45,011 nt of DNA, taken from the sequence record NC_073054.1; one strand, given 5' to 3'. Below the pieces are notes generated by a model. The model saw only the letters and a program-made list of their open reading frames with translations, did not search any database and had not been told where the DNA came from. This DNA comes from Escherichia phage JLBYU37. Both the position numbers and the translations under genes were made by a program. Below, one piece after another: positions 32,337 to 36,316 of this stretch (its first letter is position 1; each line of letters begins with the position of its first letter).

Positions 32337-33722
32337 TTAGTAGAAATCTACGGTAGGAACAACGGCGATTGGACGAATCACAGGGAACAGGTGCGCAATT
32401 GGATAACCCGCGGCATCGTTCATGTGGTCCACACCGGCGGTTTTATCCGGCTCGCCTTTCTTCAGGTCGTAAACCTGCTGTTCCAGACATTTCGCTAGTG
32501 TAGGGCATTTATCCAGGTTGACAAAATACTGGCGCACGCCCTTCGAGTTGCACATCATCGTATTCATCGCGATCAATCGGTCTTTCACAGGCGGGTTAAC
32601 GCTGTCGTATTCCACCTCGAAGCCCGCATCTTCCAGTTGCGCGATATCGGACGACGAAGCGTTAACCGTTTTGCGGGATTTGCCGCTGCTATCCGGGTAC
32701 ACGACAACACGACCGGCAGCGCAATGATCGGGGTAGCGCTCCTCGATCGCTTCAATCATAGCCGGGGTATCAAACAGGTCCACGAATTCATCCACGGCGT
32801 GAATCTCGTCGCGGAACTCCTTGTTCTCGGTGGTACGCTGCCGTCTTACATACACGACCGCCGCCATTTTCGTGACGTTAAAGTCCATACCGATAATCAG
32901 CGTGTCTTCCGGTTGTACTTCTTCGGTGCTGGCGTTCTCCTCGCGATTAAACATCTTGTATACCGCGCCCGATGTAAGGTTGACAAACAGGCCGTTCAGG
33001 TACGCGTCAATAAGGTTAGCCGGGTACTGACTGCGCAGCGTGTCGATAAAGTCTGCCGGTAAATGGTGGTTGTCGGTGGTCTTCGCCCGGATCAGGCGCT
33101 TTTGGCTATCCTTCTCCACCTCGAAAATCTGGTACATCGCCCGGTAGCCTTCCGGGGTGGACACTATGACGAACTGGCGTACAAAGCCTGCACGCAGACG
33201 ACCGAGCAATTTGTGATACGCCGCCAGCGCAACGTCTTGCTTCGTGGTATCGAATTCATCGGCAACAATCCACGCGGCGTTAACCCCGATAAGGCGGGTG
33301 TAGTTCTCCATCGACTCACAGATAACGCGGGTCCATTTGCCTTTCACAAGCACGTTATAGATCTTGTCCTGCTTATTGAACTTCCACCGGAAGCCTGCCT
33401 CGTCGAATGCCTTCTCCAGTTCCGGATACATGATCTTAACCAGGAGGGGAATAGTCGGTTCTGTAACGATGCCGTCATGACCGGGGTTCAGGGTTAAAAG
33501 CTGGATGACCTTACGCGCAGCGACCCACGACTTTCCACCGCCGAAGCCGGAACACAGGCCGAGGATTTTAGTCTTTGTGTCGCGCAGTAGTTCAACCTGG
33601 TGCGGCAAGCAATCAGGCTGATACAGGCGGACGGCCTGCGCAACGCGTGTCGGTCGCGGCGGTCGATTTCGCTTTGCGATCGCCCGTTCGAGGGCGCGGT
33701 GTTCTGCCGCATAGTTACGCAT
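32337..33722 (-). CDS. terminase large subunit
   Basis: 461 aa; ATPase Walker A-like LGLCSGFGGGKS, Walker B VADEFD, C-terminal nuclease-type acidic residues; stop/start coupled to TerS. Confidence 0.85.
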   Translation of the reverse strand: MRNYAAEHRALERAIAKRNRPPRPTRVAQAVRLYQPDCLPHQVELLRDTKTKILGLCSGFGGGKSWVAARKVIQLLTLNPGHDGIVTEPTIPLLVKIMYPELEKAFDEAGFRWKFNKQDKIYNVLVKGKWTRVICESMENYTRLIGVNAAWIVADEFDTTKQDVALAAYHKLLGRLRAGFVRQFVIVSTPEGYRAMYQIFEVEKDSQKRLIRAKTTDNHHLPADFIDTLRSQYPANLIDAYLNGLFVNLTSGAVYKMFNREENASTEEVQPEDTLIIGMDFNVTKMAAVVYVRRQRTTENKEFRDEIHAVDEFVDLFDTPAMIEAIEERYPDHCAAGRVVVYPDSSGKSRKTVNASSSDIAQLEDAGFEVEYDSVNPPVKDRLIAMNTMMCNSKGVRQYFVNLDKCPTLAKCLEQQVYDLKKGEPDKTAGVDHMNDAAGYPIAHLFPVIRPIAVVPTVDFY

Positions 33723-34294
33723 TATTCACCCTGGCCTTTGCCGGAAGGTTCGACAACTACGTCGCCGTTATCATCTTCGTCGTCATCCAGCGGTACATCG
33801 TCGCGGACGCCGTGGTTCGCTTTAAGCAGGAATGTAGCGAAGCCTGCCGCGATGGTCACACCACCGGCTTCCATCAGGAAAGTTTTCTGCAACTCCATAG
33901 CGTCCGCCATCGCCTCGGCGAACTCCTCATGCGCACGCGCCCAGCGATACAGGCAAGCTACGCCCACGCCGATTTCCGCGGCAAATCGACCGAAGGTTGG
34001 CATTTTGTTGCGAGGGATTACTTGCGCAGCGCCTTTATCGGAGTAGTTTACCTGCCAGGCGTCGGCGTCGGCAAAATAGCGGCGAAGCTGGTCACAGTAA
34101 ACGGATCGGTAGTCCGTAGGGCGTCCGCATTTACCGCCTTTGCGGCGCTTTCCGTACTCGATTTCAGGTCCGAGATTGGTGTGCTCGGTTTGCTCTCCTG
34201 GTTTACGGCGCGGGGTAACTGCGACTCGTCCGTCCAGTTTGGCGCGACGGCCCTTAACTTTAATTTCTGCCATGATATAAGCCCTTTTGTTCAT
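33722..34294 (-). CDS. terminase small subunit
   Basis: 190 aa; HTH-like GRPTDY...FAAEIGVGVACLYRWA; acidic C-terminus; immediately upstream of TerL. Start may be the internal MAEIKVKG. Confidence 0.6.
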   Translation of the reverse strand: MNKRAYIMAEIKVKGRRAKLDGRVAVTPRRKPGEQTEHTNLGPEIEYGKRRKGGKCGRPTDYRSVYCDQLRRYFADADAWQVNYSDKGAAQVIPRNKMPTFGRFAAEIGVGVACLYRWARAHEEFAEAMADAMELQKTFLMEAGGVTIAAGFATFLLKANHGVRDDVPLDDDEDDNGDVVVEPSGKGQGE

Positions 34295-34402
34295 ATGCGC
34301 CGACCATCGGCAACATAGGAGACGGCCCTGCCATCTAAGGGGATTATAACAGGCACAAAAAAGCCCACCAAATCGGCAGGCTGGGAGGCTTATGGGTTGC
34401 CG

Positions 34403-35545
34403 TTACTTCAACATTTCCGGGCTAATGGTTAAGCGCGCTACTTCGCCGTAGTTGGCGCTATAGGTGATGACGTTTGCGCTGCGACCGGACATCCAACCGC
34501 CACGACTGGCGTAGGCGTCTTTCGCTGCGAGCGTCCGGTGCTGTTCAACAATCATGTTGCGGGATTCTACAATCTTCTGGTGGTGCAAGTGGCCTACGTG
34601 CGCGTAGCTGTACTCACTGGATCCGAAAGCCTGTCTGAATTTAGAAATCATAACCTGCTCGATAGCATCGAATCGCGCTTTGTGCCCGTGGTGGAAGAAT
34701 AGCGTGGTCTTACCGTGCTGCACCATTTTGTAGACGTCCGGGGACGTATCCACATCGACGCGCGGCTCGTTCTCGTACAGAGTATTGAACATCTCAGCCA
34801 GCCAAATCATACCCGACTCGTCATGATTTCCCTGGACGATTAGCAGTTTGACTTTGTGGTGTTTTTGCAGCGCCAGTTCGACGACGTTGCGCACCATGCG
34901 AATCATGTATCGGACCAGTTTCTGGTAGCGGGTGTCGGCGTCCAGTATGTGACCACTTGCCGGAGTGACAGCATCGAGGCTATCAAAGTGGGCCATATCA
35001 CCGAGGATATTAATTACGGCAGTGCCTGCGTCCGGGGCGCGTGCGAAGGCTTCGACAAACCAGCGGTAGAACAGGTCTTCGGCGATCGCCATATCCCAGT
35101 CTTCGCCAGTCTCCTCGCCCCATGCCAACATGCCCAGGTGGAAGTCTGACACGGTGTACAGGTTGAGCAAGTCGAGCGCCTGGATCGGTACTGGCGGGGC
35201 GCTAACTGGTGCTGCCGGTGTGATTTCGCTGTTCATACCCTCGACAACGGCGCGCATAGCTTCGAGTTGGCGCTCTTTGTCCTGCTCAGTGATGACCCAC
35301 GACATGACCTCTTCGCCATTGCCGCGCACCAGGGCCGATACGCGCTTAACCCCAAAGCCATCGGCAACGCGCTTGCGGATTACGGCATCGTTGCCGTGTC
35401 CAATGCCTTTTTTCGACAGGCGTGCTTTGCGCATATAAACATTGCGCAGTGCAATGCCGTATTTTTTCGCGATATCTTTCGACGTAGTGCCTGCTTGCAA
35501 TTCTGCGATCAATTGCTCGTCGGTGATTTTAGTTTGCGGGTGCAT
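34403..35545 (-). CDS. HTH domain fused to Mre11/SbcD-type metallophosphoesterase
   Basis: 380 aa; N-terminal TSKDIAKKYGIALRNVYMRKARL; phosphoesterase motifs SDFHLG, GDMAHFD, GNHDE, FFHHGH, GHLHH. Confidence 0.65.
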   Translation of the reverse strand: MHPQTKITDEQLIAELQAGTTSKDIAKKYGIALRNVYMRKARLSKKGIGHGNDAVIRKRVADGFGVKRVSALVRGNGEEVMSWVITEQDKERQLEAMRAVVEGMNSEITPAAPVSAPPVPIQALDLLNLYTVSDFHLGMLAWGEETGEDWDMAIAEDLFYRWFVEAFARAPDAGTAVINILGDMAHFDSLDAVTPASGHILDADTRYQKLVRYMIRMVRNVVELALQKHHKVKLLIVQGNHDESGMIWLAEMFNTLYENEPRVDVDTSPDVYKMVQHGKTTLFFHHGHKARFDAIEQVMISKFRQAFGSSEYSYAHVGHLHHQKIVESRNMIVEQHRTLAAKDAYASRGGWMSGRSANVITYSANYGEVARLTISPEMLK

Positions 35546-35606
35546 ATTAATTTACTTCCAGATTGAGATGACCTGGATGCAATATACCACGGTACTGGGG
35601 CAATAA

Positions 35607-35633
35607 ATAAAAAAGCCCGGAATTAACCGGGCT
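35607..35633 (-). terminator. rho-independent terminator after the lysis cassette
   Basis: Minus strand: AGCCCGG-ttaatt-CCGGGCT followed by U-rich tract. Confidence 0.55.
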
Positions 35634-35640
35634 TGATTGT

Positions 35641-35808
35641 TTACGTCACTGGGTCAGATTCTTCCTGTGGCGGCGGGCTTGGCAGCTTCGCATCGAAGAC
35701 CCCAGCGTGGCTGATAGTGTCGGCGATGATAGCGCGTGCGCCTGGGTCTTCGGTTTTAGCCAGTGCGGCAAGCGCGTCCGCATTATGATCAAGAATACTT
35801 TTTAACAT
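35641..35808 (-). CDS. small hypothetical protein (55 aa) downstream of endolysin
   Basis: ATG 35808 with GAGGTG RBS 7 nt upstream; translation MLKSILDHNADALAALAKTEDPGARAIIADT...; below track threshold. Confidence 0.4.
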   Translation of the reverse strand: MLKSILDHNADALAALAKTEDPGARAIIADTISHAGVFDAKLPSPPPQEESDPVT

Positions 35809-35824: not shown

Positions 35825-36316
35825 TTATGCAGCGTTACGACCGATTCGCTCGGCAACGTCCCACTGCTTACCATCAAACAACGCCTGTCTGCCGATTGCA
35901 CGGCGTACCAGACCCTTCAGCACTTCACCGCCTTGCTTGCGGAACTGCGGCAGAGTAGCACGGACCTTCGCCCAGTCGCCCAGGCGGACCGCATCATCGA
36001 AATCATTCGCGACGTCATCCGGTACGATCGGACCCGGACCGGCGTTGATTACCAGGTCCACCAGCGCGTCGAATTGCGCCTGGTTAATGCTCGGATGTGC
36101 GTATTTGTTCACCCAGTCCTCAGCATACGCCACATCGCGCTTGAGCAGTGCCAGCGCTTCCTCGCGGGTAATGCTTCGAGGCGGATTAGTGCCGGTATGA
36201 CCATAACCCCAAGTGTACAGGCCGCGGGCCTGCTCTTTCTTGGTCGCGAAATACGGCACCGGGCTGAAAGCCTCCCATGCTGCCGTAAATCTCAGACCGT
36301 TGTCACTGAATCGCAT
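35825..36316 (-). CDS. endolysin (phage lysozyme, GH24-like)
   Basis: 163 aa; N-terminal catalytic signature LRFTAAWEAF...YTWGYGHTG; immediately downstream of two holin-like genes. Confidence 0.75.
   Translation of the reverse strand: MRFSDNGLRFTAAWEAFSPVPYFATKKEQARGLYTWGYGHTGTNPPRSITREEALALLKRDVAYAEDWVNKYAHPSINQAQFDALVDLVINAGPGPIVPDDVANDFDDAVRLGDWAKVRATLPQFRKQGGEVLKGLVRRAIGRQALFDGKQWDVAERIGRNAA

Follow-up and report, generated by a model that had tools for sequence, protein, structure and literature searches.

A phage HTH-metallophosphoesterase with a possible role in host-DNA degradation

The A1 protein of phage T5 is a predicted metallophosphatase and has been likened to nucleases of double-strand-break repair and polymerase proofreading. 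It is necessary and sufficient for the degradation of the host chromosome (10.64898/2026.04.02.716235). A1 carries a GcrA-like DNA-binding domain N-terminally and a nuclease domain C-terminally (10.1101/2022.08.27.505566). Gp48 of mycobacteriophage A10ZJ24 is a metallophosphoesterase (MPE) with phosphodiesterase and DNase activities. It breaks down the DNA of its host both in vivo and in vitro and is required for phage DNA replication in Mycobacterium tuberculosis (PMC12287305). Phages T1 and TLS break down the genome of their host and reuse its nucleotides. The responsible gene was not identified in the 2024 re-annotation of TLS, in which gp66 is listed as 'proof-reading exonuclease' (PMC11447400). 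A full-length ortholog of TLS gp66 (47% identical) is encoded by Escherichia phage JLBYU37 (NC_073054.1), the 45,011 nucleotides of which form the window analysed here. Its 380-codon open reading frame (ORF), read from 35545 to 34403, codes for a helix-turn-helix (HTH) MPE:

34403..35545, minus strand: coding sequence, 380 amino acids, HTH-MPE of PHROG 704; ATG start, TAA stop.

The window protein is probably a DNA nuclease. Its MPE domain would act on DNA as a divalent-metal-dependent phosphodiesterase, as a stand-alone, Rad50/SbcC-independent nuclease of the Mre11/PolD-DP1-like branch of the MPE superfamily. The flexibly linked N-terminal HTH would tether the enzyme to DNA. Flanked by two terminators, the gene would be transcribed as its own unit by host sigma-70 RNA polymerase, starting at an extended -10 promoter, so that its timing would be uncoupled from that of the late genes for lysis and packaging on either side. 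In the role proposed for it, the enzyme would degrade the host chromosome in the early or middle phase of infection. By analogy to T5 A1 and Gp48, this would supply nucleotide salvage with deoxynucleoside monophosphates (dNMPs) and bring host functions to a stop. The combined explanation as worded here, a DNA-tethered Rad50-independent nuclease with its own promoter that degrades host DNA, is the best one found and is advanced tentatively. The specific role in host-chromosome degradation and nucleotide salvage, drawn from analogous systems, is possible and rather doubtful.

Catalytic domain and N-terminal region

A structure model was computed by AlphaFold2 using an alignment of 73 sequences (pLDDT 91.6, pTM 0.79). 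The catalytic domain adopts the alpha/beta sandwich of the MPE fold. A complete set of MPE motifs had been described in the initial annotation, and all five are present with their ligands conserved:

34406..35173, minus strand: MPE catalytic domain, residues 125-380, without a C-terminal capping domain.
35132..35149, minus strand: motif I SDFHLG, residues 133-138; metal ligands D134 and H136.
34982..35002, minus strand: motif II GDMAHFD, residues 182-188; bridging ligand D183; H186 at +3 as in Mre11 GDLFH.
34925..34966, minus strand: conserved family-specific loop TPASGHILDADTRY between motifs II and III (TPxSGHxLDxDxR).
34817..34831, minus strand: motif III GNHDE, residues 239-243; ligand N240, catalytic His H241.
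34682..34693, minus strand: motif IV HHGH, residues 285-288; invariant ligand H286.
34580..34594, minus strand: motif V GHLHH, residues 318-322; ligands H319 and H321.

The protein belongs to the calcineurin-like MPE superfamily, its five motifs holding the di-metal ligands DxH, GD, GNH(D/E), H and GHxH. The 73 sequences, which reach down to 32% identity, all share D134, H136, G182, D183, N240, H241, H286, G318 and H321, while conservation of H319 and of H186 is at least 90%. Every metal ligand and the catalytic His are invariant among six homologs from phages, 26-48% identical (T1, Pseudomonas Motto, Rhodobacter RcGingersnap, two Vibrio phages and one Campylobacter phage). Superfamily assignment relies on motifs and fold, because the Pfam scores of the window protein lie just under gathering (PF00149, Metallophos, 20.7 versus 21.5 bits; PF12850, Metallophos_2, 22.8 versus 27 bits), a threshold that is an operational cut-off and not a defining property of the superfamily. 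Among the 73 family members, 17 match PF00149 at E <= 0.01. In the loop between motifs II and III, T194 is invariant, and P195, L201, D202, D204 and R206 are at least 90% conserved. This loop is presumed to be a substrate-binding element.

Two elements precede the catalytic domain:

35414..35521, minus strand: N-terminal three-helix HTH, residues 9-44, sigma-70 region 4/LuxR-GerE-like, from AlphaFold2 and Pfam matches of family members.
35228..35359, minus strand: family-specific beta-hairpin (residues 64-88) and helix (residues 90-106), then a Pro-rich linker, from AlphaFold2 and alignments.

The N-terminal HTH of the initial annotation is borne out by the modelled helices (residues 9-17, 22-29 and 33-44, pLDDT 90-94) and by Pfam matches in family members. 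The region ahead of the catalytic core had been put at about 170 residues and comprises about 125 instead, the MPE core starting near residue 125. Residues 45-62 after the HTH form a flexible linker modelled at low confidence (pLDDT 58-71). The window protein alone yields a weak HTH signal (Pfam GerE, E 0.011). Family members match Sigma70_r4_2 (1.5e-9) and GerE (2.4e-8), and also HTH_1, HTH_23, HTH_28 and HTH_8. The family profile matched PDB sequences of the GerE, RhlR, FixJ and sigma-H DNA-binding domains with marginal E values (0.014-0.8). W83 of the beta-hairpin is invariant. The homologs of Campylobacter phages lack the HTH and begin at the hairpin element, which is kept.

The Sigma70_r4_2/GerE type of the HTH would also suit a transcription regulator or a protein phosphatase. 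The HTH would then target promoters or RNA polymerase, and the MPE domain would dephosphorylate a protein or be structural. A switch to the late (lysis, structural) genes would explain the place just upstream of lysis cassettes, which recalls ninI-Q-S-R of lambda and is found in 508 of 522 Drexlerviridae (PMC13164509). For T5 A1, an interaction with RNA polymerase has been reported (10.64898/2026.04.02.716235). The signature of PPP-type Ser/Thr phosphatases (lambda PPase/NinI) is absent from the window protein, in which motif II lacks the Arg of GDxVDRG and motif III reads GNHD, not GNHE. Strict conservation of all catalytic residues speaks against a purely structural MPE domain. Some homologs, those of Campylobacter phages, do without any HTH, and the placement relative to late genes is not conserved. 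A regulator or protein phosphatase is very improbable.

Relationship to Mre11, SbcD and DP1

The nuclease domain is nearest in fold to Mre11/SbcD, and its motif II is of the GDxxH kind. Foldseek placed Mre11 first (8e-9), with Rv0805 and DP1 close behind. Lower structural matches were LpxH (13.8), MJ0936 (13.5), GpdQ (12.7) and Rv0805 (12.3), the last two being of the class III cyclic-nucleotide phosphodiesterases (Rv0805/CpdA/GpdQ), and the PPP protein phosphatases followed at about 9. Searched against PDB sequences, the catalytic-domain profile retrieved as sole MPEs Mre11/SbcD of T. maritima and a nuclease MPE of Pseudomonas putida (E 1.4-2.9). These alignments span motif I (sD-H-hG) and motif II with a His at +3 (GDLLH and GDFLH versus GDFLH in the family). 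Among viral structures (BFVD), the nearest models outside the family were phage proteins of about 400 amino acids auto-named 'DNA polymerase II small subunit', while phage SbcD-like models ranked much lower (rank 42-43, Foldseek E ~1e-8). A direct PDB sequence search returned designed armadillo proteins, which were rejected as spurious repeat matches.

Of the initial classification as Mre11/SbcD-type, the resemblance in fold stands. Membership of the family was rejected: a capping domain is missing, since the chain ends with the MPE core, no Rad50/SbcC partner was found, and sequence matches did not reach significance. Rad50/SbcC is not annotated in the near-identical Bas83 genome and was not found among the large non-structural ORFs of the window. 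An SbcC/Rad50-type ATPase was also absent from the annotated flanking genes of 80 related loci, where most neighbours carried no label. The window protein differs from Mre11/SbcD by its N-terminal HTH, beta-hairpin element and TPxSGHxLDxDxR loop. From DP1 of archaeal PolD, a proofreading exonuclease, it differs by lacking the OB-fold and a DP2 partner. The nuclease MPE of P. putida (PDB 6nvo) is a bacterial protein of about 200 amino acids without an HTH and a weaker structural match than Mre11 or DP1. The window protein resembles an Mre11/DP1-type nuclease domain and probably works like one.

The structural ranking also bears on an anti-defence phosphodiesterase, which would act on nucleotide second messengers such as the cyclic oligonucleotides and cyclic nucleoside monophosphates of CBASS, Pycsar and type III CRISPR, or on other nucleotide-derived signals. 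Nuclease-type neighbours rank higher, motif II is of the Mre11 type (GDxxH), and the family-wide DNA-binding HTH would have no obvious use with a soluble small-molecule substrate. The gene is a persistent core gene, not a sporadic accessory (PMC13164509). Searches of PADLOC and of known anti-defence families gave no match, and no link to defence escape was found in the literature, the SECphi4/18 escaper study included. An anti-defence function is improbable. In its favour stands the moron-like mobile cassette, at whose borders HNH homing endonucleases and a gene for superinfection immunity are often found.

Comparison with T5 A1 and cluster A mycobacteriophage enzymes

T5 A1 (PHROG 1745) shares with the window protein the layout of a small helical domain for DNA binding at the N-terminus and an MPE domain at the C-terminus (for A1, 10.1101/2022.08.27.505566). 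Genes for polynucleotide kinase or dNMP metabolism neighbour both A1 and the window family. The two are locally alike at motif III (GNHDxxxSxWL versus SNHDLALSRWL). A1 differs in its length of 556 amino acids, with about 300 residues ahead of the MPE domain. It is also encoded on first-step-transfer DNA and has a separate partner, A2; comparison of A2 with the N-terminus of the window protein revealed no similarity. Orthology to T5 A1 was rejected, as the match is confined to a short stretch at motif III, and the analogy was kept. The cluster A mycobacteriophage MPEs (Gp48 and Bxb1 gp47, PHROG 221) are, like the window protein, five-motif phage MPEs. They differ in their length of about 255 amino acids, the lack of an N-terminal HTH, a motif I at D10 and their PHROG. 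By sequence comparison, T5 A1 and Gp48 are analogues of PHROG 704 within the superfamily, not orthologs.

T5 A1 and the cluster A MPEs may be related to each other: homologs of A1 matched PHROG 221 with a best E of 2.5e-5 (A1, locus L009, 1706-3376; homologs, L010-L015; Bxb1 gp47, L025, 6021-6788). Homologs of A1 occur well outside the Demerecviridae, in Agrobacterium Autographiviridae, Caulobacter phiCbK-like and Flavobacterium phages. Bxb1 gp47 is required for phage DNA replication, a point in favour of the recombination or replication role discussed below. The published recombination directionality factor of Bxb1 is presumably also gp47, the MPE itself; if so, a phage MPE would have a second, non-catalytic role in DNA transactions. 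In the RefSeq record of Bxb1 (NC_002656; L025, 5876-6788), gp46 is labelled recombination directionality factor and gp47 metallo-phosphoesterase.

Transcription signals

The MPE gene is a monocistronic unit bracketed by two terminators:

35613..35634, minus strand: intrinsic terminator ending the lysis cassette, upstream of the MPE gene; 8-bp stem with 6 G-C pairs, T-run.
35581..35589, minus strand: extended -10 element TGgTATATT (TGGTATATT), no good -35; 3' end 35 nt before the ATG.
35555..35559, minus strand: Shine-Dalgarno-like GGAAG, 9 nt before the ATG, from sequence reading.
34362..34382, minus strand: intrinsic terminator, 9-bp stem followed by a T-run, 21 nt past the stop codon.

A terminator after the lysis cassette and an extended -10 promoter of its own had both been proposed for the gene. 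The terminator hairpin is present, and in six of seven Dhillonviruses it is kept with a variable loop and an intact stem. The extended -10 element is likely the promoter of the MPE gene. This call relies on phylogenetic footprinting, because a scan for consensus sigma-70 -35/-10 promoters upstream of the gene found nothing and the genome-wide count of TGNTATAWT is not significant (4 seen where 1.9 are expected; a count of 4 is reached in 12 of 100 shuffles). The upstream alignment of Dhillonviruses conserves AGGAAGTAA. TG[G/A]TATATTG is invariant in the seven genomes, while their intergenic regions are merely 70-100% identical and the spacer to the ribosome-binding site varies. Its single variable base is the degenerate position of the extended -10. 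Transcription would be expected to start near 35574, some 7 nt past 35581. Bas83 retains the -10 element despite a wholly different sequence further upstream. Directly 3' of the homologous gene, an equivalent of the downstream terminator occurs in T1, TLS and Motto.

A second, perfect extended -10 (TGTTATAAT) lies at 34343-34351 on the minus strand, 11 nt past the MPE terminator and about 50 nt before the start of TerS (34294). A terminator followed by an extended -10 thus precedes both the MPE gene and the packaging/structural operon, which suggests, as read from the sequence, that host RNA polymerase promoters drive the late operon in Dhillonvirus-type phages.

Family size and distribution

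The window protein matches PHROG 704 ('DNA repair exonuclease') over its full length (E 3e-161, residues 5-380 versus profile positions 2-390 of 390), which marks a real gene beyond chance. The PHROG label is a guess from homology. In GenBank, members are named calcineurin-like phosphoesterase, metallophosphoesterase or putative phosphoesterase. Searches with tblastn detected MPE homologs in 2,061 of 50,697 phage records. Identity to the window protein is 95-99% in Dhillonvirus, 72-76% in Kagunavirus and Jerseyvirus, and 43-49% in T1 (45%), TLS, Webervirus and other Drexlerviridae. Further matches came from Casjensviridae and from Vibrio, Sulfitobacter, Campylobacter and Flavobacterium phages. 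When 1.84 billion representatives were searched exhaustively, 4,659 clusters matched at E <= 1e-3, mainly of 370-420 amino acids. In Drexlerviridae, the family gene is persistent (508 of 522) (PMC13164509).

The fusion of an HTH to an MPE had been regarded as unusual. With HTH and MPE as the standard architecture of PHROG 704, and T5 A1 of the same kind (10.1101/2022.08.27.505566), this view does not hold. The fusion is the norm of a very large phage family that is already known and annotated. The T1 'putative phosphoesterase', TLS gp66 and the homologs of HK578, YD-2008.s and SECphi4 share the layout of HTH, hairpin and MPE with no material difference. NCBIfam and PADLOC gave zero matches for the window protein and so indicate neither a curated bacterial family nor a link to a defence system.

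Genomic context

The window belongs to a Dhillonvirus-type (HK578-like) siphophage of E. coli. As initially annotated, the MPE gene lies between lysis and packaging genes, with the endolysin on one side and TerS/TerL on the other. Two holins, the endolysin and a 55-amino-acid ORF are located upstream on the same strand:

35825-36316, same strand as the MPE gene: endolysin, Pfam Phage_lysozyme, 9e-21.
35641-35808, minus strand: 55-amino-acid ORF between endolysin and upstream terminator, PHROG 11068 (function unassigned), E 2e-38.
33722-34294, same strand, downstream: TerS, PHROG 3064, 4e-73.
32337-33722, same strand, downstream: TerL, Terminase_6N/6C.

Context was surveyed in 80 IMG/VR loci and in GenBank loci by calling ORFs, clustering the neighbours and annotating recurrent clusters. 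Owing to a shallower query alignment, Dhillon-, Guernsey- and T1-like phages are over-represented in it. All 13 Dhillonvirus loci show the order lysis genes, MPE gene, TerS/TerL. T1-like phages carry helicase, VRR-NUC, Dam, small ORFs, MPE gene, terminator, an optional SH3 gene, holin, endolysin and spanin, and the VRR-NUC gene neighbours the MPE gene in T1, Motto and TLS. In Guernseyvirinae (protein 75% identical), the gene forms an opposite-strand island in the tail module, usually after a superinfection-immunity gene, a setting that fits an early host-takeover gene. A polynucleotide kinase/HAD phosphatase (PHROG 415) and a dNMP kinase (PHROG 139) follow directly in 15 of 45 Guernsey-like loci. 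Environmental phages show a layout like the lambda nin region, comprising NinB/Orf (PHROG 72), MPE gene, HNH, a small DUF3310-like ORF, NinG/Rap (PHROG 5034) and endolysin. The nin region of lambda itself holds a different MPE, the protein phosphatase NinI.

Recurrent neighbours are thus junction nucleases, polynucleotide kinase/dNMP kinase, HNH and lysis genes. The constant companions of the MPE gene are DNA and nucleotide enzymes, not packaging proteins. As a highly similar protein occupies differing genomic positions among phage groups, the gene behaves as a mobile, self-contained cassette.

The nin-like layout was seen in contigs of uncultured phages (IMG/VR; L084, L086, L087, L091, L093, L095 and L096). 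In the Guernseyvirinae loci (L017, 2127-4066; L018, 2097-4325; IMG/VR L039-L082), small ORFs or HNH genes follow the MPE gene where the two kinase-associated genes do not, and a bidirectional terminator closes the cassette in L017. HNH or homing endonuclease genes adjoin the MPE gene in phages of several unrelated groups, among them T1 (L002, 6201-6683), TLS (endY; L016, 39965-40636) and S4lw (L018, 3625-4098). Such adjacent homing endonucleases may account for the movement of the gene between genomes.

The place directly upstream of TerS/TerL in the 13 Dhillonvirus loci would agree with a packaging accessory that helps terminase to recognise or cut pac, as would the likeness of the HTH to those of small terminases. 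In T1-like, Guernsey-like, Casjens-like and environmental relatives, gene and terminase lie far apart. Terminase adjacency is thus specific to Dhillonvirus, which makes a packaging role unlikely. A terminator stands between the MPE gene and TerS, and TerS is preceded by a perfect extended -10 of its own. The initial annotation had raised orthology to a packaging accessory protein, and similarity searches revealed none to any packaging family. A packaging function is extremely improbable.

A solo Mre11-like nuclease could instead process ends or hairpins of phage recombination and replication intermediates, acting with phage exonuclease, annealing protein and junction resolvases to form concatemers or tidy them before headful packaging. 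The window phage encodes possible partners, a PD-(D/E)XK exonuclease and an Enc34/gp2.5-like single-strand-binding/annealing protein. The structural neighbours are the same for such an enzyme, and the immediate proximity to TerS/TerL in Dhillonvirus would suit it. Nucleases and mediators of Holliday junctions and D-loops adjoin the gene in distant relatives, namely VRR-NUC in T1, Motto and TLS, and NinB/Orf with NinG/Rap in environmental phages. Canonical Mre11 needs a Rad50-like clamp for end processing, and none was found. The own promoter, the terminators and the opposite-strand placement in the tail module by a superinfection-immunity gene are a better fit to a takeover cassette, and adjacency to a dNMP kinase points to salvage. 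A role in recombination or replication, the main rival reading, is credible and somewhat unlikely.

Proposed function

Degradation of the host chromosome by a DNA-tethered MPE faces several points that weigh against it. The role is assigned by analogy, because specific homology to A1 or gp47 was not found. Comparison of the family with T5 A1 by hhalign gave a probability of 17% for the single sequence and of 32% over 45 columns for a profile of 7 A1 sequences, the matched stretches at motif III spanning 19-45 columns. Six of the seven A1 homologs match PHROG 221 and none matches PHROG 704. Bxb1 gp47 (PHROG 221) reached 6% by hhalign versus the family profile, with nothing past the superfamily motifs. 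Similarity of the family profile to Mre11 and to the nuclease MPE among PDB sequences is not significant (T. maritima Mre11, E 0.31-1.6). The junction nucleases nearby would suit a part in recombination just as well. The role would presuppose that Dhillonviruses degrade host DNA and that phage DNA is spared. Literature searches found no experimental or functional work on PHROG 704 proteins, and the MPE gene goes unmentioned in the CRISPRi-ART and escaper-mutant papers.

On this analogy, the enzyme with which T1-like phages destroy host DNA may plausibly be a PHROG 704 member. A wider proposal is that the HTH-MPEs of PHROG 704 are the nucleases by which the host chromosome is taken apart for nucleotide salvage in T1-like phages and, by extension, in Dhillonvirus, in Guernseyvirinae and in many siphophages from the environment. 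They would be Mre11/DP1-like enzymes guided by the HTH and independent of Rad50, encoded in a mobile, self-transcribed cassette and converged on the design of T5 A1. This generalization is possible and on the doubtful side. As a sequence feature the gene is ordinary, the same protein being annotated in hundreds of Dhillonvirus genomes and the family in thousands of phages. Its value as a lead comes from its persistence in therapeutic and model coliphage groups (T1-like, HK578-like, Jersey-like and K1G-like). If correct, the proposal would explain nucleotide economy and host shut-off in T1-like and related phages. It would also bear on generalized transduction by T1-like phages, because classical T1 mutants failing to degrade host DNA reportedly transduce better. 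It could in addition reveal what sets off defence systems that respond to damaged DNA or to freed nucleotides.

Gene neighbourhood among Dhillonviruses

The 3.2 kb around the MPE gene show 93-96% nucleotide identity with vB_EcoD_Opt212, YD-2008.s, JL1 and SECphi4, and with over 100 further Escherichia phages. The protein is 98-99% identical to those of deposited Dhillonviruses. The GC content of the gene region (0.53-0.58) did not differ from the flanks in a compositional island test and so lends no support to a recent foreign origin. Antisense ORFs of 97-102 amino acids lie within the MPE gene; no family turned up for them, and no separate search was made. Rfam, searched on both strands, yielded one sub-threshold match, Trp_leader, which coincides with the terminator hairpin.

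In Bas83 (L001, 4695-4817 and 6140-6352), unrelated sequence without a terminator replaces the region upstream of the MPE promoter. An extra ORF of 70 amino acids overlaps the MPE stop codon where the downstream terminator would be. Dhillonviruses vary by recombination on either side of the gene, with indels here in many relatives. In Vibrio phage 511E55-1 (L005, 4117-6663), which offers a further neighbourhood of nucleic-acid metabolism, an OB-fold (single-strand-binding-protein-like) gene precedes the homolog, and a small 'putative phosphodiesterase' is encoded two genes downstream.

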